The notes beneath the pieces are model-generated. The model had not been told where the DNA came from, ran no database searches, and worked only from the letters and a program-made list of their open reading frames with translations. A stretch of DNA of 64,000 nt, from positions 14,600 to 78,599 of the forward strand of contig JBAYVZ010000002.1 in NCBI GenBank assembly GCA_041674285.1. Reading direction: 5' to 3'. The DNA comes from Minisyncoccota bacterium (lineage in GTDB: Bacteria; Patescibacteriota; Minisyncoccia; Phycocordibacterales; UBA9973). Made by a program: the position numbers and the translations under genes. Shown here piece by piece: positions 2,087 through 52,031 of this stretch. How positions within the stretch are numbered: position 1 is the first letter of the stretch; every line of letters starts with the position of its first letter.

Positions 2087-2088
2087 CG

Positions 2089-2248: not shown

Positions 2249-2253
2249 CAAAA

Positions 2254-3533: not shown

Positions 3534-3650
3534 CCCGTTAGAGATAGGTAATGATTACATTACCGTATCGAGTTAACATATAGTAATAAATACGACTTAC
3601 TTTAAATAATATCCCATAGATAGAAATAGAACAAACACATCTCTAACGGG
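3534..3650 (-). mobile_element. MITE-like element, copy 1 (117 bp, 12 bp terminal inverted repeats) inserted at the dnaX start codon
   Basis: TIR cccgttagagat/atctctaacggg; flanked by (a)cat/aacat duplication containing the ATG; internal hairpin ggtaatg-atta-cattacc; first 70 nt about 90% identical to copy 2. Confidence 0.6.
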
Positions 3651-3671
3651 AACATATTTAGAGTATACCAA

Positions 3672-4754: not shown

Positions 4755-4921
4755 TATCTTTTGAAGATTTTTTAAATTAATTCTTGAACGGGAACTTGCG
4801 CAGGCGCGACTGGTGCCGAGCAGAGCAGAAAAATTAGCAAATTTTTACGCGTGTCCCGAGAGAGAAGTTAATTTATAAAATCTTGATATGTGTGCTTTTT
4901 GAAAGAAGCTATTTTGAATTT

Positions 4922-5794: not shown

Positions 5795-5795
5795 A

Positions 5796-7109: not shown

Positions 7110-7144
7110 ATTCCCAGTATAGTAAAAAATGGTAGAATATACAA

Positions 7145-8008
7145 ATGCAAGAAATTCTCAAATTAAAACCTGAGCAATTCCCCAAGGCACTCCTAGAAAT
7201 CCCCCAGCCACCAAAAGAGCTATATATACGTGGAGTACTCCCAAAAGAAAATGAATATGTATTCCTAGCTGTTGTCGGCTCACGCAATCATACAAACTAC
7301 GGTCGCGATATTTGTGAGAAATTAATCGCAGGCCTACGCGGATATCCTATCGTCATCGTATCAGGACTAGCTATGGGTATAGACACTATCGCACATCGCA
7401 GTGCTATGAAGGCCGGACTACTGACACTATCTATGCCGGGATCAGGTCTTGATCCAAAAGTTTTGTATCCGAAGAATAATATAAATCTTGCCGAGGAGAT
7501 AGTGGACAATGGCGGATGCCTACTCGCAGAATTCCCACCGATGATGAAAGCAGAGCTGTATACATTCCCCCAGCGCAACAGATTGATGGCGGGAATTTCG
7601 AAAGCCACTCTCGTAATAGAGGCCGCAGAGAAATCCGGCACCCTGATCACGGCACGCATGGCACTAGACTACAATCGTGATGTCCTCGTCATACCCGGTT
7701 CAGTATTCTCAAATACATCTAGTGGTACCAATAGATTGATCCGCCAAGGTGCCACACCTATCACAAATAGCACCGAACTCCTCGAAGCATTAGGCTTTGA
7801 GGTAGACAAGAGTATGAGTGAAAAAGACAAATATGCAGACTGCGGAGAGGATGAGATGAAGATAATAAAACTCCTCGATGATCCGATGGAGCGCGATGAT
7901 CTAGTCCGAGCATCCGGTATGAATATAGCCAGCGCCAATGCCCTACTTTCTATAATGGAAATAAAAGAATTGATATGTGAGGAACTGGGTGAGATAAGGA
8001 AGATATAA
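7145..8008 (+). CDS. dprA: DNA processing protein DprA (Smf)
   Basis: 287 aa; Rossmann-like SMF domain with GSRNxTxYG and VSGLAxGID motifs. Confidence 0.85.
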   Translation: MQEILKLKPEQFPKALLEIPQPPKELYIRGVLPKENEYVFLAVVGSRNHTNYGRDICEKLIAGLRGYPIVIVSGLAMGIDTIAHRSAMKAGLLTLSMPGSGLDPKVLYPKNNINLAEEIVDNGGCLLAEFPPMMKAELYTFPQRNRLMAGISKATLVIEAAEKSGTLITARMALDYNRDVLVIPGSVFSNTSSGTNRLIRQGATPITNSTELLEALGFEVDKSMSEKDKYADCGEDEMKIIKLLDDPMERDDLVRASGMNIASANALLSIMEIKELICEELGEIRKI

Positions 8009-8016
8009 AATAAAAC

Positions 8017-8050
8017 AAACCCATCCGAATAATCGAATGGGTTTGATAAA
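8017..8050. terminator. bidirectional terminator between dprA and the 8070..8369 gene
   Basis: acccatccg/cgaatgggt stem with flanking A/T runs. Confidence 0.5.
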
Positions 8051-8069
8051 TTTTTAAACAATAAATTTA

Positions 8070-8369
8070 CTAATTTTTAAAAAAACTACGGTAAACAATG
8101 TAAGCCAAGGCTTGAGCCTCTGATACTTTTTGAAAAAGAATTATAGTCTCTTCTTCATCATCATTAAACCGAATAGCTGCTTTATTAGATTCTAGCGAAT
8201 TAAATAAACTATCAGCTCTTGTTTTGCTGGGGTTACTACCCATTAGTTCGATTCTTAATTTATTAAGATCCGCAACTAGAAAACCTTTCTCAAATCCAAA
8301 GTAGGCAGCGAAGCAATTAACTTCTTCAACTTTAGAATCTAACAATGCTTGTTTAATTTTAATATCCAT
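8070..8369 (-). CDS. hypothetical protein
   Basis: 99 aa ORF with no recognised motifs. Confidence 0.35.
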   Translation of the reverse strand: MDIKIKQALLDSKVEEVNCFAAYFGFEKGFLVADLNKLRIELMGSNPSKTRADSLFNSLESNKAAIRFNDDEEETIILFQKVSEAQALAYIVYRSFFKN

Positions 8370-8453
8370 CTTTGTAAATTTTAATTTGTTAGCATTATAT
8401 CACTTTTATACATAAAAGTCAATAGATAAATGACAAATTTTCAAAGGCTAGAT

Positions 8454-11331: not shown

Positions 11332-12810
11332 ATGACAACAGATATTAATGAAATCTATAAAATAGCTCCTAGGCTCAATGATGAAGATAAAGCATTAATA
11401 CAAAAGGCTTATGATGTGGCACACAAAGCTCATGCCGGCCAAATGCGCAAAAGCGGTGAACCCTATTTTATTCACGTATTTGCTACAGCAAAAAATCTAG
11501 CCTCCTTTGGTATGGACGCCAAGACTATCGCTGCTGGATTCCTACACGATACACTAGAAGATACAGACCTTCCAGAAGAAGAACTAATAGCCGAATTCGG
11601 CGAAGAAATAGTAAAACTAGTAAATGGTGTGACAAAGCTCGGTAAAGTAAAGTACCAAGGTCATGCACGACACGTAGAATCACTCCGTAAATTCTTTATG
11701 GCCATGGCAGATGACCTGCGAATACTGATTATTAAACTAGCAGACAGACTACACAATGTGCAGACGCTAGAGCACGTACGCGAAGACAAGAGGAAGAGAA
11801 TTGCATTAGAGACTATCGAGATACACGCACGTCTCGCTGACCGCATAGGTATGAACAGCCTAAAAGGTAATCTTGAAGATGCTGCTTTCCCCTACGCCTA
11901 TCCAAAAGAGTATGCTGAGCTTCAAAAAATATTGGCAAATGTAAAATCAGACAATACAAAAGATTTAGAAATGGTCACAGAAGAACTCACAAAAGAATTA
12001 ATCAACCAAAAAATAAACATTGTAGAGATTTCTCGTCGCTCAAAATATAAATATAGTCTTTGGAACAAACTCGTAAAGTACAATATGGACATTGAGAAGA
12101 TATACGATGTGGTCGCGCTCCGAGTGATTGTGAACAACATCGAGGATTGCTATAGAACTCTCGGTATTGTACATAGCATATGGAAGCCTCTACCAGGAAG
12201 AATCAAAGATTATATCTCCACACCAAAGCCAAATGGATACAGATCTCTACACACTACGATATTCACTGGTACTGGTGGAGTGATAGAAGTACAGATACGT
12301 ACACCCGAGATGCACGCCGAGGCTGTATACGGCATCGCTGCACACTTTATATACAAAGAAACTGGTGGCAAAAACTTTACTATCAAAGGTAGCAAAGATA
12401 GAAAATTTGAATGGCTATCTCAACTCCAAGAATTACACAAGACAGTAGATGACCCAGAGAAATTCCTCCAGCATCTACAGATGGATTTATTCCAGGATCG
12501 AATATTCGTATTTACCCCAAAGGGAGATGTAGTAGACCTACCAAAGGGGTCAACGATTATAGATTTTGCTTATGCCATACACTCTGACATTGGGGATCAC
12601 ACCCAAAGTGCATTGATAAACAATAAAAATGCGAGTCTTGGAACTGTACTTTCAAACCGTGACATCATAGAGATTATTGTGAATCCAAATACAAACCCAT
12701 CCTCAAAATGGCTAGAGTATGCCAAGACAAGTATTGCGAGAAAACACATAAATGCACACTTGAAAGAGAATAGCCTCCTCTCAAAATTCAGATCATTCGC
12801 AAAATTCTAA
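11332..12810 (+). CDS. rel: bifunctional (p)ppGpp synthetase/hydrolase, Rel/SpoT homolog (HD + synthetase + TGS)
   Basis: 492 aa; HD hydrolase motifs (HDTLED), RelA/SpoT synthetase domain, TGS domain (FTPKGDVVDLPKGSTIIDFAY). Confidence 0.85.
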   Translation: MTTDINEIYKIAPRLNDEDKALIQKAYDVAHKAHAGQMRKSGEPYFIHVFATAKNLASFGMDAKTIAAGFLHDTLEDTDLPEEELIAEFGEEIVKLVNGVTKLGKVKYQGHARHVESLRKFFMAMADDLRILIIKLADRLHNVQTLEHVREDKRKRIALETIEIHARLADRIGMNSLKGNLEDAAFPYAYPKEYAELQKILANVKSDNTKDLEMVTEELTKELINQKINIVEISRRSKYKYSLWNKLVKYNMDIEKIYDVVALRVIVNNIEDCYRTLGIVHSIWKPLPGRIKDYISTPKPNGYRSLHTTIFTGTGGVIEVQIRTPEMHAEAVYGIAAHFIYKETGGKNFTIKGSKDRKFEWLSQLQELHKTVDDPEKFLQHLQMDLFQDRIFVFTPKGDVVDLPKGSTIIDFAYAIHSDIGDHTQSALINNKNASLGTVLSNRDIIEIIVNPNTNPSSKWLEYAKTSIARKHINAHLKENSLLSKFRSFAKF

Positions 12811-19804: not shown

Positions 19805-21304
19805 ATGTCAGAAAACAAAACACAAACAAATAGACCACCGGTAGTTGTGGTGATGGGACACGTCGACCACGGAAAGTCGACGCTTCTTGACTATATCCGC
19901 AAGTCAAACATAGTAGACGGAGAAGCAGGAGGAATCACTCAGCATATTTCTGCGTATGAGGTAACACACAAAGACGAGGGAGGTGCAGATCAAAAGATTA
20001 CATTCCTAGATACCCCAGGTCACGAGGCTTTTTCTAAAATGCGTGCACGAGGAGCATCTGCTGCTGATATCGCGATTCTAGTAGTATCGGCTGAAGACTC
20101 AGTCAAAGCTCAGACTCTAGAGGCTTACAATACAATCATCGACAGCAAAGTACCCTACATCGTAGCTATCAACAAGATAGACAAACCCAATGCGAACATC
20201 GAAAAGACAAAGATGGACCTAGTAGAAAAAGGTATATACCTAGAAGGTATGGGTGGAGATATACCGTTTGTTCCAATCTCTGCAAAATCAGGAGCAGGCA
20301 TACCAGAACTACTAGATATGATCCTACTCGTCGCAGATATGAACTTATACACAGGAGATAAAAAGTTGGGTGCATCTGGTGTCATCATCGAGGCAAACCG
20401 TGATCCAAAACGTGGAATCACAGCTACCTGTCTAATCAAGAATGGAACTGTTAAAAACGGCATGTTCGTAGTAGCCGGCAATGCGATAGTAGCTACACGT
20501 ATCATGGAAAATTTTCTAGGTAAACCTATAAAAGAAGCCACATTCTCATCCCCTATCCGCCTTGTAGGTTTTGATATCATGCCCGAGGTAGGTAGTACTT
20601 TTGATACTTTTGAAAGTAAAAAAGAAGCAGAAAAATTCCAAGTTGAAATGCGTGAACTGGTAAACAAAAAAGCAAATACAAAAACAGAAAGATTTGAAGG
20701 TAAAGTAATTCCTATTATAGTCAAGACAGATGTAGCAGGCACAGCAGAAGCTCTAGAAAAGGAAATGTCTAAACTAAACACAGCAGATATATCTTTCAAG
20801 ATTATTTCTTGCGGAGTAGGTGCCATATCTGAGACTGATCTGAAGATGGCAAGCTCTGACAAAGAGAGTGTCGTCGTAGGATTCACAGTCAAGATGGATA
20901 GAGGTGCTGCAGATCTGAACGAGACATTGAAGGTAAATGTGCAGAGTTTCGACATTATCTATAAACTCACAGACTGGCTAAAGGAGCTCGTAGAAGAGCG
21001 CCGCCCAAGATCAGAGACCCAAGAAGTCACAGGTGCGGTAAAGATATTGAAGACTTTTAGTGCTACAAAGGACAAGCAAGTAATCGGTGGAAAAGTCACA
21101 GAAGGCCGTATCACCCTAGGTGGTATCGTGCGTATCATACGTCGTGAAAATGAGATCGGCCGTGGCAAGATAGTAGAGCTACAAGCTGGTAAAATAAAAT
21201 CCAAGGAAGTTCTAGAAGGTAATGAATGTGGAATGCAAGTTGAATCTAAAATAGAGATATCTGGAGGAGATGTACTAGAAGCATTCACAACAGTTATTAA
21301 GTAA
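19805..21304 (+). CDS. infB: translation initiation factor IF-2 (short form, G-domain onward)
   Basis: 499 aa; GTPase motifs GHVDHGKST, DTPGHEAF, NKID; beta-barrel domains at the C-terminus. Confidence 0.9.
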   Translation: MSENKTQTNRPPVVVVMGHVDHGKSTLLDYIRKSNIVDGEAGGITQHISAYEVTHKDEGGADQKITFLDTPGHEAFSKMRARGASAADIAILVVSAEDSVKAQTLEAYNTIIDSKVPYIVAINKIDKPNANIEKTKMDLVEKGIYLEGMGGDIPFVPISAKSGAGIPELLDMILLVADMNLYTGDKKLGASGVIIEANRDPKRGITATCLIKNGTVKNGMFVVAGNAIVATRIMENFLGKPIKEATFSSPIRLVGFDIMPEVGSTFDTFESKKEAEKFQVEMRELVNKKANTKTERFEGKVIPIIVKTDVAGTAEALEKEMSKLNTADISFKIISCGVGAISETDLKMASSDKESVVVGFTVKMDRGAADLNETLKVNVQSFDIIYKLTDWLKELVEERRPRSETQEVTGAVKILKTFSATKDKQVIGGKVTEGRITLGGIVRIIRRENEIGRGKIVELQAGKIKSKEVLEGNECGMQVESKIEISGGDVLEAFTTVIK

Positions 21305-33260: not shown

Positions 33261-34745
33261 TTAATCCTTTCTTAAAAATAGTGGGACCTCCGGCTTTTTA
33301 TTTTCTTTTATTAAAGCTTTTAGTTTTACATTTGTCTCCGGCATTATTGGATTGAGCATTCGCGCGATAGTATAAAGTTCAAGTATCATTTCAGAAATTA
33401 ATTGCTTACCTTTTTCTGGGTCAGTTTTTACAACCTTGAATGGCTCAGTAGTTTGAATTTTTTTATCCAATTCTTGTATTTTATCCCAAATACTATCAAC
33501 TGCTTTTTTGATATCAAAAGATTCATACAGAGAAAAGTATTCAGAAAAATCTGTTCTTTCTGGAATCTCAGGACACTGGTCTAAATATTTTTCAGAGAGA
33601 GTTAATAATCTTGAAGAAAGATTCCCCAATCCATTCGCAAGGCCACTGTTGTATGAATCTTTGAATCTTTCGATAGTGAATGGTGAATCTTCAAATGAAG
33701 ACACTTCACGAAGAAGGAAATAGCGCAGTGCATCTGTGCCGTATTCGGATACGATATCCTGCGGATCAACTACATTACCCAATGTCTTGGACATCTTCAG
33801 TCCTCCATCAGCTGTGATGAATCCATTGATCACTATCTGCTTTGAATTTGGCACTCCTGCAGCCATGAGCATTGACTGCCACATTGCACTCTGAAAGCGT
33901 AGATTATCCTTGCCACAGTATTGTGTGGGTGAACCATTGACCCAGTATTTCTGGAATTTTTCACTTGCGACAAGTGCATCGAGTGTATCTACTCCATCGT
34001 CGGCCAAGGTAGAGATATAGTTTGTAAGTGCATCGAACCATACATACATCACATGATCAGAGTCATCTGGCACGGGTATACCCCATGGCATCTTGGTAGC
34101 GAGGCGTGAAATAGAAAAATCTTGTAGACCTCTTGCGACGAATGCTTTGATCTCGTTGTAGCGGAAATCTGGCACGACAAAATTTGGATTTGCATTATAA
34201 AAATCTGTGAGCTTTTCTGTAAAAGCAGAATACTTGAAGAAATAATTTTCTTCTTCGATGACTTCAAGTGCGCGTCCAGGATGATCCGGACACTCCCCAT
34301 TTACCAGTTCACTATCAGACTTTTCAGACTCACAACCTACGCAGTATTTTGTCTGATAATTTTTCTTGTAGATATAACCATTCTCTTTACACTTCATCCA
34401 AAAACTTTGTGCAATCTTCTCATGCCTCTTGTCAGTAGTACGGATAAAATGTATATCATCGGATAATCCAAAGATATTTACAGACTCGCGAAAATTTTGA
34501 AAACTATGATCGACGAATTCTTGCGCAGTCAGGTTTTGTGATTGTGCTTTCTCGTAGATCTTCATACCGTGCTCGTCTGTACCAGTATTGAAATACACAT
34601 CAAAATCATTGAGCTTTTTGTATCGTACTATCGCATCCGCACGCACAAATTCCAATGCATGCCCCATATGGAGATTTGCATTTACGTATGGTAGTGTAGT
34701 TGTCAGGTAAAATGGTTTTTTATTCATATTAATTCGTTCGGGCAA
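33261..34745 (-). CDS. metG: methionyl-tRNA synthetase
   Basis: 494 aa; HMGH (NLHMGHAL) and KMSKS (KMSKTLGN) class I motifs. Confidence 0.9.
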   Translation of the reverse strand: MPERINMNKKPFYLTTTLPYVNANLHMGHALEFVRADAIVRYKKLNDFDVYFNTGTDEHGMKIYEKAQSQNLTAQEFVDHSFQNFRESVNIFGLSDDIHFIRTTDKRHEKIAQSFWMKCKENGYIYKKNYQTKYCVGCESEKSDSELVNGECPDHPGRALEVIEEENYFFKYSAFTEKLTDFYNANPNFVVPDFRYNEIKAFVARGLQDFSISRLATKMPWGIPVPDDSDHVMYVWFDALTNYISTLADDGVDTLDALVASEKFQKYWVNGSPTQYCGKDNLRFQSAMWQSMLMAAGVPNSKQIVINGFITADGGLKMSKTLGNVVDPQDIVSEYGTDALRYFLLREVSSFEDSPFTIERFKDSYNSGLANGLGNLSSRLLTLSEKYLDQCPEIPERTDFSEYFSLYESFDIKKAVDSIWDKIQELDKKIQTTEPFKVVKTDPEKGKQLISEMILELYTIARMLNPIMPETNVKLKALIKENKKPEVPLFLRKD

Positions 34746-41256: not shown

Positions 41257-41847
41257 TTATAGTCCACTTTCACGCAATGCACGATTGATATGTGATATTA
41301 TGGATTTCTTTTCAGATAGCAATTTATGTATCTTGTCTTTATCAAATATGCCACCGATATAATCATGCATATCATCGCTATCACCGACATAACCCAGAGA
41401 GTGCACTATAGATAGTACGGTGTGAAGCTCCAATGCAGACAATGACTCATGATTAAAATTCTCATCATCCAATAATAAGAATGATTGGATAATCAAATCA
41501 AAAACTTCATCATTCCCCTCCTCGCCACGACACAGGCGATCGATCAGTGCAGATACCCTAGACATGAAGACAATAGATTCTTTTTTACTACGAGCCAAAG
41601 GGAAGGATGATATGGTTGTAGCCGAAGTCACTCGCCAGATATCTCGGCCTTTTACTAGATCAATCTTGGCATAGGACATATCTTGCAGTGTATATCGGAG
41701 CTTGGATTTTGCGAGCCTAATACCACCGGCCATAGCACGGACTAGGCCTAGCTCTCTAGTATATATAGATAGCATCTTATTAGCCTCACCGCTTGCGCGT
41801 GAAGATATGATGAACCCATGTGTGTGATAGATATGATGCTGAGCCAT
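41257..41847 (-). CDS. recO: DNA repair protein RecO
   Basis: 196 aa; N-terminal OB-fold pattern GxIIxxRxxGExNKxLxIYTRExGLVRAxAxGIRxxKSK typical of RecO. Confidence 0.6.
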   Translation of the reverse strand: MAQHHIYHTHGFIISSRASGEANKMLSIYTRELGLVRAMAGGIRLAKSKLRYTLQDMSYAKIDLVKGRDIWRVTSATTISSFPLARSKKESIVFMSRVSALIDRLCRGEEGNDEVFDLIIQSFLLLDDENFNHESLSALELHTVLSIVHSLGYVGDSDDMHDYIGGIFDKDKIHKLLSEKKSIISHINRALRESGL

Positions 41848-41849
41848 AT

Positions 41850-42278
41850 TTATTTATTTAAATTATCTAAATATTTTCTCACTTCTTTCATAATCACCTT
41901 TTGATCATCAAATGTAAAAGTCTCCATAGCTTCATCGTATGTCACCCATTTAAAGTCTACTATTTCGCCTTCTTGGATTTTCACATCGACTTGTAGTGCA
42001 TAAGCGATAAAATATTCATTCACCTTGTGGCGAATATCTCCACTATGATTGAAATCATATTCTTCTATGAGGGTAGGTAGTTCAGCAAATTTAAATTCTG
42101 TAATACCTGTCTCCTCCTGCAGTTCTCGGATAGCAGCAGTTTTAGAATCTTCCCCCTCTTCGAGATGCCCTTTTGGAAAACTCCAATTGCCAGACAATTG
42201 TTTTATTAATAGAAATTTATCTTCCTCGCCATCCTTGCGTAGTACGAGGATAAATCCCGCAGAGTGCTCTGTAATCAT
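41850..42278 (-). CDS. NUDIX hydrolase
   Basis: NUDIX box GHLEEGEDSKTAAIRELQEETGI. Confidence 0.8.
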   Translation of the reverse strand: MITEHSAGFILVLRKDGEEDKFLLIKQLSGNWSFPKGHLEEGEDSKTAAIRELQEETGITEFKFAELPTLIEEYDFNHSGDIRHKVNEYFIAYALQVDVKIQEGEIVDFKWVTYDEAMETFTFDDQKVIMKEVRKYLDNLNK

Positions 42279-42316: not shown

Positions 42317-42350
42317 GGTAAATATTGATGCGATAGCATCAATATTTACC
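42317..42350. terminator. hairpin terminator, paralog A (14 bp stem)
   Basis: ggtaaatattgatgc-gata-gcatcaatatttacc with flanking A6/T4; the 3' arm contains the stop codon of the 42346 gene. Confidence 0.65.
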
Positions 42351-42843
42351 TTTTGTATTTACTATGTAAACTATAATCTTTAGCTAATTTAAAAGTTTTC
42401 ACCCCATCTTCAATTCCTATTTTCTTAACATAATCAACAAACTCTTTTGGTAATGGTGACGGGCCCACCCAGACACTCTTTTGAACCATAATATAATCAA
42501 ATGATCTTAATTGTTTTCTTAGCCAATTACGCTCCGAATTCTTACTAGAAGGCACATCGAACATTAATAGCAAATTCTTTGGTGCCCCGTCTTTAAATGG
42601 TGATTCAAAATTTTTGAATTCTAGATATTTTTTTATCTTGCACTCCTTTCCCTTCTTTGTTATAAACCAACCATTTTCGTCTTTATCTATTAATCCATTT
42701 TTCTTTAATTGATATGCTGTAGACTTAAGAGAGTTGTAATTTTTACTTGAAAGACGAGGTATACCAAAAATATTTACACGAACTCCTTTGTAATTTAATT
42801 CAGTATTCCATAATTCAGTTAAAATATTTTCAACCAAACTCAT
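42346..42843 (-). CDS. winged-helix + Cas2-like (PaaX_C-like) domain protein, putative transcriptional regulator
   Basis: 165 aa; N-terminal wHTH (STAYQLKKNGLIDKDENGWFITKKG) and C-terminal LLLMFDVP...RNWLRKQLRSFDYIMVQKSVWV resembling the Cas2 core; no cas1 or CRISPR array nearby. Confidence 0.5.
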   Translation of the reverse strand: MSLVENILTELWNTELNYKGVRVNIFGIPRLSSKNYNSLKSTAYQLKKNGLIDKDENGWFITKKGKECKIKKYLEFKNFESPFKDGAPKNLLLMFDVPSSKNSERNWLRKQLRSFDYIMVQKSVWVGPSPLPKEFVDYVKKIGIEDGVKTFKLAKDYSLHSKYKR

Positions 42844-42914: not shown

Positions 42915-43535
42915 TTATTTTAATATATTTTCCACTGCTTGAGTCAAGTCATTTGGATTATCAATAATATATGCAGGACACCCCTTCTCAAGATTTTTCC
43001 TATCATGGAAACCCCAAGTAACAGCAATCGATTTTACACCACAGTCAGTTCCTTCTCTTATGTCACCAAGTGTATCAGTTATAAAAACGGCACTATCTGA
43101 TTCTAATGAATACTTATTAAGAATCATTTTTATTTTATAAACTTTATTTATATGAATATCTCTTCCGAGTATTTCAGTAAAATACTCGGAAATATTTTCT
43201 CGATCAATGATTTTTTTAATAAGATCTGTTGGTGTTGATGAAATAATGCAGATATTAAATTTAAACGAAAGCTCTTTAATAATATCTTTTAATTCTTGTG
43301 GAATTTTCAATCCCCTAGTTTTTATTTCATAATGAAAATCAAAATCTGGATGCTTATTAAACTTCCCCTCATTTTTAGATAATGAATCAAAAATATTACC
43401 ATCAAAACAAGTTTTATAAAAATCTAAAGATAAATCTTCATTAAACTCTTGACTAATCTCGTAGCAAGGGATGAGAGTGTCAACTAATACACCATCAAAA
43501 TCAAACATTACTATTTTTTTAATATCATCTTTCAT
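42915..43535 (-). CDS. HAD superfamily hydrolase
   Basis: 206 aa; motif I FDFDGVLVDT, Rossmannoid HAD core. Confidence 0.8.
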   Translation of the reverse strand: MKDDIKKIVMFDFDGVLVDTLIPCYEISQEFNEDLSLDFYKTCFDGNIFDSLSKNEGKFNKHPDFDFHYEIKTRGLKIPQELKDIIKELSFKFNICIISSTPTDLIKKIIDRENISEYFTEILGRDIHINKVYKIKMILNKYSLESDSAVFITDTLGDIREGTDCGVKSIAVTWGFHDRKNLEKGCPAYIIDNPNDLTQAVENILK

Positions 43536-43536
43536 T

Positions 43537-46500
43537 TTATTTTTCTATCTTTACTACGAATATTAGGTCTCCGATTTTTATTTCATCGCCAGATGTATCA
43601 CCCCATACTACCTCTCTCACTCCTGTAGTCTTTTGGAATTCAGGGAGAAATGTATTTACAATATCTTTTTCTATCTCGCCACACTGCACATATAGAGTCA
43701 CCACATCAGCAGGCATAAGCCCTGTCTTTTTTCGTAGGTCTTGTGCTGCACGGACAAACTCGCGATACTGACCCTCTTTTTTAAGTTCTGGTGTTATCTC
43801 GAAATCCATTACTACATCAGACAAAGACTTATCGCAGACTATTTCTTTTACATTCAATTCATCTTTAATAATCTCTATATACAAAGATGTGAATTCCATT
43901 GGTATACTAAATTTTCCAAGAGGCTGACGCACAGGGACACCAGCTTTTTGACGAGACTGCAGTCCTAGTGTGACTACATCACGAACTTGCTGCATCATAC
44001 CTACAACATCAGAATTTTCATAAGAGAATGCTGACCAATCACAAAGATGTACAGATTCTGCATCGTTTTCATTCTTTAATTTTTGCCATACACTCTCTGA
44101 TATAAATGGTGCGAATGGCGCCAATACAGAAACTGTAGTTTTCAATACAGAGTATAGAGTCTTCTTTGCATTTATATCACCATCTTTTAGGCGATCACGA
44201 GAGCGTCGTAGATACCAAGTAGAAAGATCTTCTATGAACAATTCAAAAGGTCTCGTAGCTCCGGCCATATCGTATGCATCCATAGATACAGTCACCTCCG
44301 ACACGAGGGAGCTTAATCGAGCTAGGATCCATTGATCCAGTACATTTGTATTTTTTTCTAAATCAAGTTCACCATTTTCAATAGATACATCTCTGTAGAG
44401 CTCATAGAATGTAGCTACGTTTTCTAGGCGAGATACGATCTTGCTTGCGATATCCTGGACCCCCTTCTCAGAGAAGTTCACATCTTCACCCTTCATCAGA
44501 GTAGAAGACATCAGATAGAATCGTAATGCATCCACTCCGTATTTATCAAATAGTATCCATGGATCTGGATAATTGTTTTTTGATTTACTCATCTTGCTAC
44601 CGTCCTCGGCTAGTACTGTACCCGTAGTGACGACGTTCTTGAATGGTGCCTCTCCAAATAGCATAGTAGATATAGCATGAGTATAGTAGAACCATGTTCT
44701 CGTCTGAGCTATATATTCAGCAACAAATCCTCCGGGGAAATTATTTTGTTTCCATTCTGGATTCTCGAATGGATAGTGATCCTGAGCAAACGGCATAGAG
44801 CCGGATTCAAACCAGCAGTCTATAACCTCGGGGATTCTCTTGTACTCCCGACCCTCCCCATCTACCAATACTATGTGGTCTATGTATGGACGGTGTAAGT
44901 CTAGATCATAATTTGCATTGTGTGGAAGTGGAGAAAAATCCAATTCAAAATACTCAGCATTGCCTAAGTAGTGAAAGTCTTTTCTATCACGAATCATAGA
45001 CAGTGCTTCATCTGCATTGTACCCACGAGAACCCGCAGATAGTAGCCATGATGGTCCACCATGAGTGACAATCACAATATTTTTATTTTTATATTTTGAT
45101 TCTATCTCATAGATAAAATCCATAACACGATTCTTTAAAGATTGATATGATTCACCTCCAGTATAGGCAAAAGAGAAATTCTCTACAGTCTTTGGTAGTT
45201 TATCGTGATATTCCTTCCAAGTTTTAAAATCTTTATTCCCAATCATAAACTCACCCAATCTCTCATCAACCAAAATAGATTCAGAATCAACTGAGATATT
45301 TTCAGCGAGCACAGAGGCAGTCTCTCTCGCCCTCATGAATGGTGAAGCAAAAATAATATCAATTTTTTTATCTTTAAAATCTTGTGCTGATTTTTTTACT
45401 TGATCAGTTCCATTTTCAGTTAGATGATTTATTTCATTTACATCATCCGAGATCATCCCCCCGATATTGTGAGATGCTTCCCCATGACGCATTACAAAGT
45501 ATTTGTTGCCAGATTTTTTAACTTTTGATTTTAGATCATCAACAGAGCTAGTAAACATCATTTGCCCACTCTCTGATTTCCAGATAGGCAAAGGACTGGC
45601 CCAATATCTATTGCGAGAGATAGTCCAATCCGGTGCATTTTCCATCGTATGATGGAATCTTCCATCTTTTAAGTGTGCTGGGACCCAGTTCATTGATTCA
45701 GCTTTTTCCAGGAGATCCGCTTTTACTTTTTGAATATTTACAAACCATGAAGGTAGTGCGTAGTACAGTAGTGGTGTATCACATCGGTAGCAGTGTGGGT
45801 ATGAGTGCTTTATCTTTTCTTTATCAAAATACGCCCCACTCTCTTGCAAATATTTTATAATATTAATATCAGCTTGAAATCTTATTTTTTCATCTTCACT
45901 TTTTGGTTTTACATATTGACCAGCAAAATCAGTCACTTCTACAGAAAATACTCCGTTTGGTTCTACGTGACGGATAAATGGAATATTGTTTTCTTTGGCT
46001 AGATTCATATCGTCCTCACCAAAAGCCGGAGCTTCGTGAGCGATACCAGTACCTGCATCTGCTGTTATAAAATCCGCATGCCAAACTTTCCAAATATTTT
46101 CTTTATTTGGCATATCTGTATTTTTATAATAATCAAAAACCGGTTCGTATGATAATCCCACTAATTCATTACCAGAAACTTCTTTTATGATTTCTGGATT
46201 TACAAATTTTGTCTTTAGATTTTCAAAAAGATCTTTTGCGATTATGAATGTCTCATCTTTATCTGGAACATTGTTTTTTACATATACATACTGCAAATCT
46301 TTATTTATAGCAATCGCAGTGTTGCCCGGTAGCGTCCATGGAGTAGTAGTCCAAGCTAACAAATAAGTATTTTCAACATCTACTAATTTGAATTTTACAT
46401 ATACAGAAATATCAGTTATATCTTTGTAGCTGTTGTCCATGGCAATCTCAGAGTTTGCAATCGGAGTCTCACATCGTGGACAGTATGCGAGTACTCGCAC

Positions 46501-47022
46501 ACCTTCATAAAGGAGCCCCTTGTTATTCAGCTCACCCAGGGCCCACCAGACACTCTCGATAAAACTATTATCCATAGTCTTGTATGAATTATCGAAATCC
46601 ACCCATCGCCCCATACGCTCGACAGTCTTTTTCCATTCTGATACATAGGTCAATACCTTGCTACGAGCATGTTCCGAGAATTTCTCTATGCCGTATTCTT
46701 CGATAGCTTTTTTACCAGAGATGCCTAGATCTTTTTCTACGATATTCTCTATCGGTAGACCATGACAATCCCAACCCCATCTACGAGGTACAGAGTAACC
46801 ACGCATAGTCTGATATCTACCTACGACATCTTTTGCAGTAGATCCTAGAATATGGCCATAGTGCGGGAGTCCTGTAGCAAAAGGTGGTCCATCATAGAAA
46901 ACATACTTCCCTTTTGGTGCTTCCTTTTCGATACTCTTTTTAAAAGTATCGTTTTCTTTCCAAAACGATAGTATCTTTTCCTCGCGCTCTGCATTTTGTG
47001 ATTTTATATTTTTTTCTTCCAT
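43537..47022 (-). CDS. ileS: isoleucyl-tRNA synthetase (type 2) carrying an inserted histidine-phosphatase (PGAM/SixA-like) domain
   Basis: 1161 aa; PPFATGLPHYGHIL (HIGH), KMSKS (KMSKSKNN), editing domain; about 200 aa insert at aa ~500-700 with RHGEASHN, SPFMRARETA and VTHGG motifs. Confidence 0.9.
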   Translation of the reverse strand: MEEKNIKSQNAEREEKILSFWKENDTFKKSIEKEAPKGKYVFYDGPPFATGLPHYGHILGSTAKDVVGRYQTMRGYSVPRRWGWDCHGLPIENIVEKDLGISGKKAIEEYGIEKFSEHARSKVLTYVSEWKKTVERMGRWVDFDNSYKTMDNSFIESVWWALGELNNKGLLYEGVRVLAYCPRCETPIANSEIAMDNSYKDITDISVYVKFKLVDVENTYLLAWTTTPWTLPGNTAIAINKDLQYVYVKNNVPDKDETFIIAKDLFENLKTKFVNPEIIKEVSGNELVGLSYEPVFDYYKNTDMPNKENIWKVWHADFITADAGTGIAHEAPAFGEDDMNLAKENNIPFIRHVEPNGVFSVEVTDFAGQYVKPKSEDEKIRFQADINIIKYLQESGAYFDKEKIKHSYPHCYRCDTPLLYYALPSWFVNIQKVKADLLEKAESMNWVPAHLKDGRFHHTMENAPDWTISRNRYWASPLPIWKSESGQMMFTSSVDDLKSKVKKSGNKYFVMRHGEASHNIGGMISDDVNEINHLTENGTDQVKKSAQDFKDKKIDIIFASPFMRARETASVLAENISVDSESILVDERLGEFMIGNKDFKTWKEYHDKLPKTVENFSFAYTGGESYQSLKNRVMDFIYEIESKYKNKNIVIVTHGGPSWLLSAGSRGYNADEALSMIRDRKDFHYLGNAEYFELDFSPLPHNANYDLDLHRPYIDHIVLVDGEGREYKRIPEVIDCWFESGSMPFAQDHYPFENPEWKQNNFPGGFVAEYIAQTRTWFYYTHAISTMLFGEAPFKNVVTTGTVLAEDGSKMSKSKNNYPDPWILFDKYGVDALRFYLMSSTLMKGEDVNFSEKGVQDIASKIVSRLENVATFYELYRDVSIENGELDLEKNTNVLDQWILARLSSLVSEVTVSMDAYDMAGATRPFELFIEDLSTWYLRRSRDRLKDGDINAKKTLYSVLKTTVSVLAPFAPFISESVWQKLKNENDAESVHLCDWSAFSYENSDVVGMMQQVRDVVTLGLQSRQKAGVPVRQPLGKFSIPMEFTSLYIEIIKDELNVKEIVCDKSLSDVVMDFEITPELKKEGQYREFVRAAQDLRKKTGLMPADVVTLYVQCGEIEKDIVNTFLPEFQKTTGVREVVWGDTSGDEIKIGDLIFVVKIEK

Positions 47023-47335: not shown

Positions 47336-47372
47336 AAAAGCAAGATTTTCATCTTGCTTTTTTATTACATTT
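47333..47372. terminator. terminator after argS
   Basis: aagcaagat-tttc-atcttgctt with flanking A/T runs. Confidence 0.7.
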
Positions 47373-49080
47373 TTTCTGGAGTTTTGATACCTAGAAGATA
47401 AAGGCCGTTTTGCATTGTAGTGTGGAATGCAGATACGAGAGCCACACGATACGGTGCATATGGATCATTCTTGTTCACTATCACAGTATTGCCATAGAAA
47501 GAGTTGAATGCAGATGCGAGCTCGGTCAGATACGTAGCGATATGATGGGGTTCTAGTTGTTCATATGCATGCGCTACTACCTCTGGGAATCTGTACAGAG
47601 TCTTTTCCAAAACAGTGATATCAGATGGTATGTCTGTATACGCTACGCAAATACCCTCGCCCTCGGCTTTCTTGTGGATACCATTTGCGCGCACTGCTGT
47701 GTACTGCAGATATGGACCAGAGTCACCATCAAAAGAAATAGATTTTTCAAAATCATAGATGATATCAGATCCGAGTGATGAACGGAGGATAGAATATTTC
47801 AGTGCGGCTACTCCTACAGTCTGAGCGATATTATCTTTCTCCTCGGCAGATAGCTCACGCTCGGCTACCTTTTCTCGAACTACATCCATAGAATCCTGGA
47901 GAAGTGATTCACCTGTGACTACATTACCCTTGCGAGAAGACATCTTGCCAGAGGCGAGGCGCATCATACCATGAGTGATATGCTTCATCTTTTTCTCAAG
48001 ATCTGGATGCATGAGTGATATAGCCTGTTGAACTACCTTCATATACTCGCCCTGCTCAATAGCTGTAGTCACTATAGATAGATCGAGGTTTTCTTCCTTT
48101 TCGAATTTTGTCATTGTCAGACCGATCTCCTTTGTCTCGTATAGTGGCAGACCACTACTAGTGATGAATACTCGAGTGTGTAGTTTTGGATTGTATTTAT
48201 CTGCTTTGAATACTATTGCACCATCAGACTCCTCGAATACATTTGGAGTATTCGCACGGACGATCTTCTCACCGATTGGAGCCATGACAGACTCGAAGAA
48301 ATAGTGATTGAATTTTGTACCTAGAAGTGAATAGATTTTTTCAAAGGCAGCGAGTGTCACTTCTCTACCCCATGCGTAGATTTTATTTATCTCTTCATCA
48401 CTCTTGTCATAAACTTTTTTATTTATCGCATCTATAGCACTCTTTGCATCAGGATTATTCTCGTACTCATCACTACCTTTTGCATACTGCACTCCTATAT
48501 ACTGTGCCTTTTCTGAGACAGAAAGATTCTCATCTGGCATACCAAAATTCTGCAATCCATATATCGCTTTTGCTACGTGTAGACCCACATCCCCTTGATA
48601 GTTCGCACGAACAGTCTTTGCACCAGAGAATTCTACGATACGAGCGATAGATTCACCAATAGCATTGGTCATAAGGTGCCCGATATGAAATGGCTTGAAT
48701 GGATTCGGATCTGTATACTCCACCATTATTTTCTTGCCATTAGACAATTCATTTTTCCCCCAATTTTCTTTTTTATTCAAAATATCTTTTACGCTACCGA
48801 CAAAGAATTCACGTGATAGGTAAAAGTTTATAAATCCTGCCCCTGCTACTTCTATTTTTGAGATTTCTTTTGGAAGATTCTTTTCAATCTCAATCTTTAT
48901 CTCGTCTGCGAGAGCGCGAGGATTCTTACCAGATTGCTTTGCATAGGCCATGGCTACATTTGTAGAGTAGTCTCCATTATTCAAATCAGCAGGATGCTCC
49001 AGGGTAATAGCCGTAGCCTCGATTCCGAGGTTCTTTAGAGCTTCTAGTATTGTATTTTGTATCTGTATTTTTATATTCAT
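47365..49080 (-). CDS. argS: arginyl-tRNA synthetase
   Basis: HIGH (PFHIGHLMT), DALR anticodon-binding C-terminus; start taken at MNIKIQ (49080), 1 nt after the dut stop. Confidence 0.9.
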   Translation of the reverse strand: MNIKIQIQNTILEALKNLGIEATAITLEHPADLNNGDYSTNVAMAYAKQSGKNPRALADEIKIEIEKNLPKEISKIEVAGAGFINFYLSREFFVGSVKDILNKKENWGKNELSNGKKIMVEYTDPNPFKPFHIGHLMTNAIGESIARIVEFSGAKTVRANYQGDVGLHVAKAIYGLQNFGMPDENLSVSEKAQYIGVQYAKGSDEYENNPDAKSAIDAINKKVYDKSDEEINKIYAWGREVTLAAFEKIYSLLGTKFNHYFFESVMAPIGEKIVRANTPNVFEESDGAIVFKADKYNPKLHTRVFITSSGLPLYETKEIGLTMTKFEKEENLDLSIVTTAIEQGEYMKVVQQAISLMHPDLEKKMKHITHGMMRLASGKMSSRKGNVVTGESLLQDSMDVVREKVAERELSAEEKDNIAQTVGVAALKYSILRSSLGSDIIYDFEKSISFDGDSGPYLQYTAVRANGIHKKAEGEGICVAYTDIPSDITVLEKTLYRFPEVVAHAYEQLEPHHIATYLTELASAFNSFYGNTVIVNKNDPYAPYRVALVSAFHTTMQNGLYLLGIKTPEKM

Positions 49081-49081
49081 A

Positions 49082-49504
49082 TTACTTTTTTCCCGTACTA
49101 CCGAATGCACCCTCACCACGGACTGACTCACTCAATATATCAACTTCCTCTAATTCTGCAATAGCTACTGGGTAAATGATGAGCTGGGCGACTTTGTCAC
49201 CCTCTTCTACTGTATACGGTTCACTACCTAGATTCACTAGATGTGTATTGTACTCTCCACGGTATCCAGCGTCATATACACCACCCATAGTATGGAGTCC
49301 TGCACGAGATACACTACTCTTGTCCTTCACTATCGCAGCATACCCAGTCGGGAATTCGAGTCCAAATCCATGAAAGAAAATATGATGTGCCCCCGGTTGT
49401 AATACCACTGTCTCCATCGCATACATATCCGTACCTACATCCCCCGGATTGGCATACTGTGGCAGCTTTGCATTCTCTTTTAATTTTTTAATTTTTATTT
49501 TCAT
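49082..49504 (-). CDS. dut: dUTP diphosphatase
   Basis: 140 aa; dUTPase motifs (GDVGTDMYA, SRAGL, GVYDAGYRGE). Confidence 0.85.
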   Translation of the reverse strand: MKIKIKKLKENAKLPQYANPGDVGTDMYAMETVVLQPGAHHIFFHGFGLEFPTGYAAIVKDKSSVSRAGLHTMGGVYDAGYRGEYNTHLVNLGSEPYTVEEGDKVAQLIIYPVAIAELEEVDILSESVRGEGAFGSTGKK

Positions 49505-49995
49505 GATAGAAATAATTCCTTAACTTCTTTACTATGCATTGCTCCTACAAAATCATTTGGGTTTTCTTTTAACTCTCTCAATAGTTCTTCTTTTGTGAAC
49601 CATTTTAATTGTTCCACTTCACTCTCTTGGGCAGTCAATTTTTTTTCTCTTGAGAATTGTGCAGTGAATATCTGTAAAAATCTTTTTCCAGCAGTAGTAT
49701 CACCGTACATTTTTTTTGACATAGTAAGAGGTACATCATTCACTCCTATCTCCTCCTCCATTTCCTTGTATGCATTGCTCTCATATGTCTCGCCTTCTTC
49801 TACGGTTCCAGCTACTGCTGCACTCCATAATCCTGGATTATTTTTTTTATCCAATTTTCTTTGTTGCATCAAGACATCACCATTCTCATCTGTAATCCAT
49901 ATAGATGTTATACGAATAATATCCTCAGGGTTTCTATCTGATCTATCTTTATAACCTATTATCTCATCTTGCTCATTTACTACTGGGATCTTCAT
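49501..49995 (-). CDS. NUDIX hydrolase
   Basis: NUDIX box GTVEEGETYESNAYKEMEEEIGV. Confidence 0.75.
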   Translation of the reverse strand: MKIPVVNEQDEIIGYKDRSDRNPEDIIRITSIWITDENGDVLMQQRKLDKKNNPGLWSAAVAGTVEEGETYESNAYKEMEEEIGVNDVPLTMSKKMYGDTTAGKRFLQIFTAQFSREKKLTAQESEVEQLKWFTKEELLRELKENPNDFVGAMHSKEVKELFLS

Positions 49996-50437: not shown

Positions 50438-51157
50438 TTACTTTTTGGGTACCTTTTTGATTTTTGGGAGGGATTTGATTGCTTTGGCGTACACTTCCTC
50501 ATGTATATCTTCTCGAGTACGCAGAGTATTTTTGATAGAGCAATCCACCTGTACATAATTCTTTTGTGTCTTGGCTAGCCACAGTGCACTCGCACGAGAA
50601 TTCTCGAGAAAATTATTATCCTTTTCATGGACATCCTGCTTCTTGCCTAGATAAGCACGTGCATCCTTTTTATTCCTCTCGGCCATTAAAGCTTTACTGA
50701 TAGCTATAGGTAGACTCAGGTAGAATATCACATCCGGTCTTGGTATCTTGAATACTTCATGCTCCATCTCGTCTAGCCACTCTATGAATGCTTGGCGCTT
50801 TTTTGTATTCTTTATCTTTCCACCTTGATGGATCTGATTGGCACTCACATACCTATTCGCAATCACGATATAGCCCTTTGCGAGCCAATCCTCCATCTGC
50901 CCCTTGGACTCAAATCTATCTGCCGCGTACAGGACCGAGGCGATCTTTGGGTGAACATTCACAAAATTGTAGTACTGCTCGGAGAGGCAGTGCCCGATGA
51001 ATTTACCAAAAAAGTTCTGATAGTATTCTGGAAAATCTACAGTCTTTACTGTATAACCATCCCACTTTAATCTCTTCATCAATAAATCCACCTGAGTAGC
51101 CTTACCACTACCATCTGTACCATCTATCACTATTAGTTTTCCTTTTATTTTTTTCAT
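50438..51157 (-). CDS. tmk: thymidylate kinase
   Basis: P-loop IVIDGTDGSGKATQ, DRF-like motif (AADRFESK), LID region; start taken at MKKIKGK. Confidence 0.75.
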   Translation of the reverse strand: MKKIKGKLIVIDGTDGSGKATQVDLLMKRLKWDGYTVKTVDFPEYYQNFFGKFIGHCLSEQYYNFVNVHPKIASVLYAADRFESKGQMEDWLAKGYIVIANRYVSANQIHQGGKIKNTKKRQAFIEWLDEMEHEVFKIPRPDVIFYLSLPIAISKALMAERNKKDARAYLGKKQDVHEKDNNFLENSRASALWLAKTQKNYVQVDCSIKNTLRTREDIHEEVYAKAIKSLPKIKKVPKK

Positions 51158-51161
51158 ATAT

Positions 51162-52031
51162 TTATCCCAAGGGTACTGCATCAGAAATTTCTTCTTGATC
51201 AGGATATTCCTTTCTTATTTTTTCTATATCATCATTATCCATTATAAAATCCAATGCTCCAAGATTTTGATTTAAATGTTCTTCACTACGAGTCTTTGAA
51301 AGAGTTATCACGTATGGTTGAGAAACTAACCAATTGATAGCGATTTGAGCTGGAGTTTTTTTATATTTTTCAGCCATATCTAAAATAATCTGAGGGGCGT
51401 CTTCTGAAAACATTCCTTTTTGTAATGGCCTCCATGCACTAATAAAAATATCATTTTTCTGGCAATATTCAACGACACCTTTCAGCTCTGGCTCCCTAAA
51501 AATCAAATTGTAGTGCACTTGATTGCAAACAATTTTATTATTCGTATAACTTTGAGCTTCTTTTAAACTCTCAACGGTGAAATTACAAACTCCAATATTT
51601 TTTATAAAACCATTTTCTTTTAGAAAATCTAGGGCTCTCATTGTCTCCTGCAATGGGATTTCTGGATTACAAAAATGAATCAGATAAAGATCTAGATAAT
51701 CTACGCCCAATCTTTCCAAGCTTTTCTTGCAAGAATTTATAACACCGTCAAATGAAAGATTTTCTTTTTTTACTTTTGAAGCTATAAATAATGTAGATCG
51801 ATCAAAATCTTTAATAGCTTTACCTATCAATACCTCGGTATAACCATCAGCATATAATTCAGCCGTATCTATATGTGTAATACCAGCATTTATGGCCGCT
51901 TTTATTCCATTTATATCAGCAGAGTCATCGTTTGAAATATCTCTTTCTAATCTACCCCCCATCTGCCATGTACCCAATCCATACACTGGCATTTCAAATC
52001 CTGTATTTAATTTTTTTGTTGGAATTTTCAT
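51162..52031 (-). CDS. aldo/keto reductase
   Basis: 289 aa; AKR motifs (YGLGTW, IDTAELYADG, tetrad residues). Confidence 0.85.
   Translation of the reverse strand: MKIPTKKLNTGFEMPVYGLGTWQMGGRLERDISNDDSADINGIKAAINAGITHIDTAELYADGYTEVLIGKAIKDFDRSTLFIASKVKKENLSFDGVINSCKKSLERLGVDYLDLYLIHFCNPEIPLQETMRALDFLKENGFIKNIGVCNFTVESLKEAQSYTNNKIVCNQVHYNLIFREPELKGVVEYCQKNDIFISAWRPLQKGMFSEDAPQIILDMAEKYKKTPAQIAINWLVSQPYVITLSKTRSEEHLNQNLGALDFIMDNDDIEKIRKEYPDQEEISDAVPLG

Follow-up and report, generated by a model that had tools for sequence, protein, structure and literature searches.

The gene ileS occupies positions 43537..47022 of the reverse strand in a 64,000-nucleotide stretch of DNA from a Minisyncoccota bacterium (GenBank assembly GCA_041674285.1, contig JBAYVZ010000002.1, positions 14,600 to 78,599), the whole of which we call the window, and encodes an isoleucyl-tRNA synthetase (IleRS) that carries a complete histidine phosphatase (HP) nested within it. 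The open reading frame (ORF) is uninterrupted and specifies a single polypeptide of 1161 amino acids (aa) plus stop. Few enzymes are as conserved as the aminoacyl-tRNA synthetases. Appended domains occur commonly in them, the CP1 editing domain is the classic example of a nested catalytic domain, and both parent families of the present protein are well known. The unusual points here are that the second enzyme is nested in the catalytic body, that the arrangement is conserved class-wide, and that it is backed by an operon/fusion pair. The features of the gene are as follows.

43537..47022, reverse strand: ileS with nested histidine phosphatase (type-2 IleRS), 1161 aa plus stop
45595..47022, reverse strand: N-terminal part of IleRS, aa 1-476, with the first half of the Rossmann fold, the CP core zinc site, CP1 editing, CP2 and the CP2-3 linker
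46852-46863, reverse strand: HIGH motif in the form HYGH, aa 54-57 (motif search)
45511..45594, reverse strand: N-terminal CP3 flank, aa 477-504, a beta-hairpin (the former CxxC arm WKSESGQ) and the helix SVDDLKSKVKK (secondary structure from the AlphaFold2 model)
44923..45510, reverse strand: nested HP domain of ~196 aa, aa ~505-700, branch 1, PhoE/PspA/CobC-like (Pfam, AlphaFold2, Foldseek)
45481..45489, reverse strand: RHG motif, R512-H513-G514, with H513 the predicted phospho-accepting nucleophile (conservation)
45331..45333, reverse strand: R564, second arginine of the phosphate pocket, in SPFMRARET (conservation)
45250..45252, reverse strand: E591, predicted general acid/base, in DERLGEF (conservation)
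45061..45063, reverse strand: H654, second catalytic histidine, in IVTHGG (conservation)
44833..44922, reverse strand: C-terminal CP3 flank, aa 701-730, HNANYDLDLHRPYIDHIVLVDGEGREYKR, the former second CxxC arm (aligned to 8c8u)
44383..44832, reverse strand: second half of the Rossmann fold, aa 731-880, with CWFESGSMPF, QTRTWFY and KMSKS (Pfam, 8c8u alignment, motifs)
44581-44595, reverse strand: KMSKS motif, aa 810-814 (motif search)
43537..44382, reverse strand: anticodon-binding and type-2 C-terminal domains, aa 881-1161 (Pfam Anticodon_1 at aa 896-1035, DUF5915 at aa 1070-1161)

The synthetase and its nested phosphatase

Judged by its sequence, the protein is a complete, functional-looking type-2 IleRS with its signature motifs intact. 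It scores 864.1 bits against the NCBIfam equivalog profile for ileS (TIGR00392, cutoff 621.4), and its closest solved relative in a sequence search of the PDB is the Priestia megaterium IleRS2 (8c8u, E=2e-221), the best solved relatives being IleRS2 and eukaryote-type enzymes, which places it in type 2. The AlphaFold2 model of the full protein (121 aligned sequences; pLDDT 85.5, pTM 0.77) matches 8c8v in a Foldseek search of the PDB (E=2e-80, TMt 0.74), with IleRS2 and yeast IleRS as its counterparts. The N-terminal part holds the CP core zinc site (C181/C184 and C411/C414), whose residues, like those of the editing domain, are invariant among aligned relatives, as well as the CP2-3 linker, APDWTISRNRYWAS. 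CP1 is present, as the alignment to 8c8u runs unbroken over aa 1-497 and 1wk8, an isolated fragment of the IleRS CP1 region, matches aa 198-410. From HIGH to the type-2 C-terminal domains, the synthetase body is the same as in the P. megaterium IleRS2 (8c8u/8c8v) and the Thermus thermophilus IleRS (1ile). More specialised assignments were rejected, since the mupirocin-resistance models MupA and MupB (NF000257/NF000258) gave 695 and 715 bits against a cutoff of 1900, reflecting general IleRS2 similarity only, and ileS_w_GNAT (NF040702) gave 335.7 bits against a cutoff of 1999, with no acetyltransferase family found in the Pfam scan of the window protein.

The Pfam family tRNA-synt_1, whose first stretch covers aa 17-504, is split in two by a match to His_Phos_1 (PF00300, aa 509-672, E=2.9e-28, 99.3 bits against a cutoff of 21.7). 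A preliminary description of this DNA, made from its letters and ORF translations, had placed a complete histidine phosphatase inside the IleRS at 44925-45525; these positions correspond to aa ~500-699 and are indeed those of the HP domain, and the identification, well outside what chance would give, is borne out by structure prediction as well as by Pfam. In the full AlphaFold2 model the insert has a mean pLDDT of 88-97 per ten-residue block, mostly 94-97, and the domain modelled alone reaches a pLDDT of 92.6. Its top fold match in a Foldseek search of the PDB is PspA, the phosphoserine phosphatase of H. thermophilus (4ij6, TM 0.78, E=9e-14), followed by a mycobacterial hydrolase (6s2q), GpgP Rv2419c (4pz9), an HFP of the riboflavin pathway (9mmh), CobC (6e4b), the PSP of E. 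histolytica and PhoE (1h2e); TM values of 0.73-0.79 to 4ij5/4ij6, 6s2q, 4pz9 and 1h2e identify a phosphoglycerate-mutase-like alpha/beta fold. The motifs quoted in the preliminary description are all in place, with WASPLPIW at aa 474-481, RHGEASHN at 512-519 (45466-45489), FMRARETA at 562-569, VTHGGP at 652-657 and LHRPYIDH at 709-716.

The catalytic residues are almost invariant. In a close set of 121 sequences, R512, H513, R564 and H654 are present in 121/121, G514 in 120/121, E591 in 120/121 (with one D) and N519 in 114/121, and in a divergent, species-level set of 81 the counts are 81/81 for R512, G514 and H654 and 80/81 for H513, R564 and E591 (again with one D). The HP core has a mean identity to the query of only 40% across the divergent set, as against 59-63% for the Rossmann-fold parts. 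Retention of the catalytic residues despite ~40% domain identity argues for an enzyme under selection for catalysis rather than one that is decaying or purely structural, and from its sequence the domain looks catalytically competent.

The domain can be assigned at the level of the superfamily. A sequence search of the PDB agrees with Foldseek that, among solved proteins, phosphomonoesterases acting on small metabolites come nearest, rather than phosphatases of nucleotides or proteins, and with the former (PspA 4ij5/4ij6, PhoE 1h2e, CobC 6nru/6e4b, GpgP 4pz9, HFP 9mmh) the window domain shares its fold (TM 0.66-0.79), the catalytic residues and a length of ~200 aa. It differs from them in its low identity (22-26%), in falling below the curated cutoffs of these families and in its position, none of them being nested in another enzyme. 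The scores concerned are 89.1 against 225 bits for dPGM_arch (NF038349) and 33.8 against 261 for GpmB (NF002901), 54.5 against 350 and 50.4 against 277 for the PspA-type models NF045917 and NF009994 (although PspA is the closest solved structure), 79.5 against 162.9 and 51.9 against 250 for the CobC models TIGR03162 and NF011580, and 37.9 against 74.5 for SixA (TIGR00249), where the match is limited to aa 508-579. A further fusion in which a CobC/PhoE-like phosphatase is joined to a nucleic-acid enzyme, the RNase H/acid phosphatase of the Rv2228c type (NF005567), gives a 71.5-bit match over the HP domain, below its cutoff of 326, and there the phosphatase is terminal rather than nested and has another partner. 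By these profile scores the domain is a member of the superfamily outside every characterised subfamily tested.

Insertion site, distribution and the stand-alone form

The insertion point can be defined closely. Aligned to 8c8u, query aa 1-497 correspond to chain positions 1-474 and query aa 701-1084 to chain positions 480-869, so that ~200 residues stand in place of ~5. The preliminary description had contrasted a canonical interval of 25-45 aa between the WASPLPIW and LHRPYIDH segments with some 230 residues in this protein, and both figures are sound, as W481 and L709 are separated by 227 residues in the window protein and by ~29-33 in 8c8u and in insert-free Parcubacteria IleRS. The N-terminal flank aligns to the 8c8u stretch WECEGCQHQVAPKSIKEL, its WKSESGQ..SVDDLKSKVKK pairing with WECEGCQ..KSIKELQKH, while on the other side the second-arm stretch LHRPYIDHIVLVDGEGREYKR is also aligned to 8c8u and D708, H710, R711, P712 and D715 are invariant among aligned relatives. 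These alignments put the HP domain at the tip of the CxxC..CxxC knuckle, the CP3 subdomain, which binds zinc in T. thermophilus IleRS and varies in topology among IleRSs (PMC7191050, PMC10810186). In IleRS2 and 1ile, CP3 spans just ~30 residues from PLxxW to HxPYxD and forms a zinc knuckle in the T. thermophilus enzyme, whereas the window protein has the ~196-aa domain and has lost the cysteines. All four knuckle cysteines are gone from the window protein, from 117/121 close relatives and from 52/81 distant ones; they are kept in 4/121 close relatives, and 27/81 distant ones have both the cysteines and the insert. The possibility that the extra residues are a known IleRS subdomain, such as a zinc-binding insertion, fails on this observation, the phosphatase sitting at the tip of a knuckle whose CxxC..CxxC still flanks it in those 27 relatives.

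The architecture is not peculiar to one genome. All of the 120 best full-protein homologues (60-97% identity, 1145-1232 aa) carry both PF00133 and PF00300, and their named sources are Patescibacteria, Paceibacterota, Pacebacteria or Nomurabacteria, with one labelled just 'bacterium'. When one genome per GTDB species was scanned, the nested form was found in at least 447 species, the named ones all being Patescibacteria/Paceibacteria, from which 80 nested loci were kept, 39-53% identical over the insert, that span Kaiser-, Zambryski-, Adler-, Taylor-, Lloyd-, Yonath- and Nomurabacteria, Paceibacterota and Parcubacteria; several records of the species scan are labelled 'uncultured Candidatus Saccharibacteria', a label that is unverified. 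The junctions between insert and flanks are conserved among relatives. An exhaustive, profile-free search with the insert alone gave 9968 relatives at E<=1e-3, and of 144 newly retrieved top representatives, 95 have IleRS sequence flanking the HP domain on at least one side. Every detected host protein (95/95 representatives) is an IleRS, with no other synthetase type among the Pfam-scanned proteins. A query consisting of the insert and its flanks returned only fragments of less than 500 aa, and the full-length architecture emerged with the full-length query. From the sequences compared, the architecture is ancient and widespread in Paceibacteria.

That the insert is a domain fusion and not a splicing element, as the preliminary description had it, agrees with the Pfam scan of the window protein, in which no intein or Hint family was found at E<=0.01, and with the AlphaFold2 models, in which the HP fold accounts for the whole insert. 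Base composition has no break at the insert beyond within-gene variation, and an assembly chimera, which the same description had raised as a way in which it might be wrong, fails as an explanation given the same architecture in hundreds of independent assemblies. Some database entries do arise from broken genes. One protein that at first appeared to be a stand-alone relative (P0024) is really a piece of a frameshifted, fragmented ileS, and another relative (P0041) sits on a 970-bp contig without gene context. At one locus (L081; ERZ25039540:contig_54002, 1937-8435), the gene for the nested form is divided into at least four ORFs, probably through sequencing frameshifts, and a Cas1 gene and an IS605 OrfB-like gene lie between argS and the ileS fragments.

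Full-text searches of open-access papers and bioRxiv found no description of a nested IleRS-HP or IleRS-GNAT architecture, consistent with the preliminary description, which knew of no account of this architecture. Database labels read 'class I tRNA ligase family protein' or 'isoleucyl-tRNA synthetase', and for fragments 'histidine phosphatase family protein' or 'broad specificity phosphatase PhoE', a generic automated annotation that hides the second enzyme.

The phosphatase also exists as a separate gene product in the Parcubacteria. The closest stand-alone relatives of the insert are His_Phos_1 proteins of 186-195 aa from Candidatus Staskawiczbacteria and 'Parcubacteria group bacterium Licking1014_1', and on each of the three long contigs inspected the HP gene lies 2-5 nt upstream of an ordinary ileS (954-987 aa, no PF00300) in the order argS-HP-ileS-recO, the same synteny as that of the window and the nested loci. 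A scan of metagenomes with a stand-alone profile gave 80 loci, of which 2 of the nested type and 10 with too little downstream DNA were excluded. Among the 68 informative loci that remained, ileS starts no more than 300 nt downstream on the same strand in 58 and within 2 kb in 5 more, the other 5 having other genes there, and nearly all loci have argS directly before the HP gene. Two loci without ileS after the HP gene carry a methyltransferase-like and other ORFs (L088, 5621-10416) or a RelE/ParE-like pair (L090, 5672-6153), as judged by eye, which suggests that mobile or defence-like cargo now and then integrates between HP and ileS.

Stand-alone and nested phosphatases belong to the same subfamily, with 31-39% identity between stand-alone proteins and the insert and a shared set of 20 conserved positions, among them an N-x-Y, specific to the family, directly ahead of RHG. 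They differ in that the stand-alone form is accompanied by an IleRS with an intact CP3, in which the CxxC..CxxC knuckle is kept and a short loop occupies the position of the window phosphatase; these synthetases are 34-44% identical to the window IleRS. As the gene for the closest stand-alone phosphatase directly precedes an ileS that lacks the insert, the two enzymes are connected in one of two ways, as neighbours in an operon or as parts of a single chain, and on these comparisons they appear tied in this manner over a large evolutionary distance. To be found either nested or directly upstream is the textbook form of a Rosetta-stone signal, and it speaks for two activities that belong together. 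In neighbour-joining trees of the HP cores, the stand-alone group of 64 sequences is monophyletic and the nested forms are paraphyletic under midpoint rooting; the trees favour neither fusion nor fission and fix no number of events.

The two forms also differ in charge, the HP core having a median net charge of -7 when nested and +15 when stand-alone. A basic stand-alone phosphatase might be taken as a sign of binding to RNA or to an acidic IleRS, a suggestion that we rejected, since the difference is lineage-wide. Stand-alone loci (L088-L167) are basic throughout, with a median pI of 8.6 for IleRS and 9.3 for other ORFs at a GC content of 34%, and nested loci (L001-L080) are acidic, with medians of 5.8 and 6.0 at 42%. 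The charge gap is a property of whole proteomes and holds no functional information.

Some relatives carry more than one extra domain within IleRS. At least three tandem HP copies, all with RHG, are present in one of them (P0281), where the end of the protein truncates a fourth, partial match, and three others (P0282, P0295 and P0366) have two or three HP domains each. Throughout these proteins each copy has RHG or RHA, and each complete mapped copy also has (S/T)H. By motif mapping, the copies lie in tandem in CP3 and/or at two further sites, namely the loop between WFESG and QTRGWF and a position after KMSKS; in P0282 all three kinds of site are occupied, by a single copy each. Of the 300 HP domains in a census, 254 are in CP3, 2 in the WFESG..QTRGWF loop and 4 after KMSKS, and the motif rules assigned the other 40 to no site. 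Two further relatives combine a CP3 phosphatase with another enzyme, namely a GNAT acetyltransferase in the loop CWFESGSMPY..AEGLDQTRGWF (P0322) and, in the same loop, an AAA_18/AAA_33 domain that is P-loop kinase-like and has the Walker A motif GAGKT (P0361), and NCBIfam already has the ileS_w_GNAT model NF040702. These GNAT and kinase-like forms follow the same principle as the window protein, an accessory enzyme inside the IleRS catalytic body, and differ from it in domain family and site. From HP, GNAT and kinase-like inserts alike, the Patescibacteria IleRS behaves as a scaffold with permissive loops for accessory enzymes. In P0322 there is, besides, a match to the IS200-like Y1_Tnp over aa 340-461, which in ordinary IleRS is part of CP1.

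Possible functions of the nested phosphatase

We favour, at a probability of about 0.5, a bifunctional enzyme in which an intact IleRS would carry an independent, active phosphomonoesterase module related to an operon partner. Aminoacylation and editing would proceed as in other IleRS2 enzymes. In the phosphatase, following the chemistry of the family, H513 would attack a phosphomonoester to give a phospho-His513 intermediate, with R512, R564 and H654 binding the phosphate and E591 protonating the leaving group and then activating water. By homology to the nearest neighbours, the substrate would most likely be a small phosphorylated metabolite; no known IleRS chemistry has a phosphomonoester in it. 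The nucleotide, alarmone or phosphoprotein substrates that the preliminary description had proposed are speculative, and cleavage of the pyrophosphate bonds of Ap4A or ppGpp is, given the established chemistry of the family, not expected of an HP enzyme. The module would be an independent catalytic unit tethered on the IleRS surface, the two sites working separately. It may have arisen when the coding sequence of the upstream gene was inserted into a permissive surface knuckle of the downstream gene, turning two co-transcribed proteins into one polypeptide, in which case nesting would mainly ensure that two products of a shared transcript are made in a 1:1 ratio and kept in one place, and in most lineages the module would also have taken the place of the CP3 zinc ligands. 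Extra HP, GNAT and kinase-like domains in relatives fit such a picture of permissive surface loops hosting independent modules.

Three points weigh against independent modules. With all curated subfamily cutoffs failed, the assignment to small metabolites comes only from nearest neighbours at 22-26% identity; a metabolic pathway requiring such a phosphatase was not identified in these reduced genomes; and the persistence of the HP-ileS link down to 34% IleRS identity argues for a tighter coupling to IleRS or tRNA than independent modules imply.

Such coupling is what the leading alternative proposes, namely that the phosphatase acts on something that passes the IleRS active-site region and so is part of the aminoacylation workflow. 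Candidates would be a 2'- or 3'-phosphate that blocks the acceptor end of the tRNA and is healed prior to charging, an adenylate-like inhibitor in phosphorylated form, or some other phosphomonoester ligand of IleRS. A phosphatase within a tRNA 3'-end enzyme has a precedent in the HD domain of the E. coli CCA-adding enzyme, and the linkage of HP and ileS has been held in two forms, operon and nested, across deep divergence. Location is suggestive too, as CP3 comes directly after the CP2-3 linker, which in yeast IleRS (ScIleRS; ARDWNVSRNRYWG) lines a pocket, part of the tRNA binding site, that is filled by reveromycin A (PMC7955072). Insertion of the phosphatase at three distinct IleRS sites (CP3, the WFESG..QTRGWF loop and after KMSKS) can be read in the same direction, but local duplication into permissive loops could explain it too, since GNAT and kinase-like domains use the same loops. 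Repair of tRNA ends should moreover serve all tRNAs, yet among the proteins scanned IleRS alone carries the phosphatase, the other synthetases in the window being of ordinary or minimal size (MetRS 494 aa, SerRS 437 aa, ArgRS 588 aa). The nearest relatives are metabolite phosphatases and not RNA-end or protein phosphatases, tandem arrays of three or more copies, as in P0281, are hard to square with end healing, and the basic charge of the stand-alone form, being lineage-wide, is no evidence of RNA binding. On balance we regard a phosphatase coupled to aminoacylation as a tentative alternative to the bifunctional enzyme, one that deserves attention and that we would still not expect to be correct.

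A broader variant would make the phosphatase a built-in repair or guard activity; the blocking phosphate that it strips off could be on the acceptor end of the tRNA, on the KMSKS region of IleRS itself or on an inhibitor directed at IleRS. We consider this conceivable but speculative. If true, the Paceibacteria would have a synthetase with a third catalytic site besides synthesis and editing, acquired repeatedly, at the three insertion sites just named, and in sister lineages provided in trans by the neighbouring gene.

Regulation offers another alternative, in which the HP module would control IleRS, as a phosphoprotein phosphatase or as a sensor of phosphometabolites, either by removing an inhibitory phosphorylation near the KMSKS loop or by coupling charging to a phosphorylated metabolite. 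The HP superfamily does include protein phosphatases, PGAM5 and Sts among them, toxin kinases are known to phosphorylate class I synthetases near KMSKS (HipA on GltX, HipT on TrpS), and the insertion sites flank the KMSKS region in sequence. A weak match to SixA (37.9 bits) can be added to these points. However, that match stays below the 74.5-bit cutoff and gives out after the first ~70 residues. In structure the domain is closest to metabolite enzymes, the conserved gene neighbourhood of nested and stand-alone loci showed no kinase partner, and there is no direct evidence of IleRS phosphorylation in these organisms. We judge a regulatory role unlikely; the regulatory and coupled versions taken jointly are a possibility of more substance than either, if still short of an even chance.

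A non-catalytic role is improbable as well. Here, the HP fold would be a stabilising or protein- or RNA-binding module that replaces the CP3 zinc knuckle, its phosphate pocket just binding. Loss of the four zinc-ligand cysteines in most nested forms suggests that the domain took over a structural role, and CP3 is a protein-interaction surface in human IARS1 (PMC13439101). Against this, the catalytic set is 99-100% conserved at ~40% domain identity, including a nucleophilic histidine and an acid/base glutamate that mere binding would not need, the zinc ligands are retained together with the phosphatase in 27/81 forms, and stand-alone homologues exist with the same conserved residues. Finally, we give practically no credence to a chimeric assembly, a wrongly called fusion of genes or a selfish element resembling an intein, for which only the unusual length and the fragmented gene calls behind some database entries (P0024) could be cited, against a continuous frame, the lack of a Hint or intein match, a composition without a break beyond within-gene variation, and one architecture with conserved junctions in 120/120 best matches and in at least 447 species genomes from many studies.

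A second and unrelated hydrolase with its full catalytic set is nested in CP3 across a class of ultra-small, genome-reduced bacteria in which each extra 600 bases is expected to be under selection. Its substrate could reveal a new auxiliary step in tRNA charging or protection, or else a habit of minimal genomes of parking housekeeping enzymes on essential scaffolds, and the three permissive IleRS insertion sites (for HP, GNAT and kinase-like domains) could serve protein engineering.

Genes around ileS

The genes nearest to ileS in the window are listed below.

47365..49131, reverse strand: argS, the upstream neighbour of the ileS/HP unit (ArgRS in 56/80 nested loci)
42915-43535, reverse strand: HAD-superfamily hydrolase of 206 aa with the motif DFDGV, starting 1 nt past the ileS stop
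42346-42843, reverse strand: small PaaX_M/Cas2-like protein (E=3e-13), between ileS and recO
41850-42278 and 49501-49995, reverse strand: two Nudix hydrolase genes flanking the argS-ileS unit
41257..41847, reverse strand: recO, the downstream neighbour (Pfam RecO_N; RecO in 63-64/80 nested loci, and after ileS in stand-alone loci)

The conserved neighbours are limited to argS, recO and a glycyl-tRNA-synthetase-like ORF, the last named by eye from its N-terminal sequence. In the window, three lineage-specific genes lie between ileS and recO. With the HAD gene beginning 1 nt past the ileS stop, a second phosphatase-type enzyme is probably co-transcribed with the IleRS-phosphatase, and neither it nor the others can be taken as conserved functional partners, HAD being found in 7/80, PaaX/Cas2-like in 2/80 and Nudix in 5/80 of the related loci. 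No further HP gene was found in the 64-kb window or in the 12-kb nested loci.

Several of these genes recur elsewhere. A PaaX_M protein is also encoded upstream of argS in one stand-alone-HP locus (L085, 4889-5428), and a Nudix gene is found a few kb upstream, beside a PolX-like gene, in three (L083, L085 and L086). Beyond argS, the window holds genes for a dUTPase (49082-49504) and a thymidylate kinase (50438-51181).

Related Parcubacteria groups with nested and stand-alone phosphatases show, over their whole proteomes, the marked charge difference noted above, the predicted proteins of their loci having a median pI of about 6 and about 9.2, respectively. The window itself contains several compact core proteins, among them a 492-aa Rel/SpoT with HD, synthetase and TGS domains, a 499-aa IF2 and the 494-aa MetRS (11332-12810 and 19805-21304 on the forward strand and 33261-34745 on the reverse strand), so that the genome appears streamlined and the ~600 extra bases in ileS are conspicuous.

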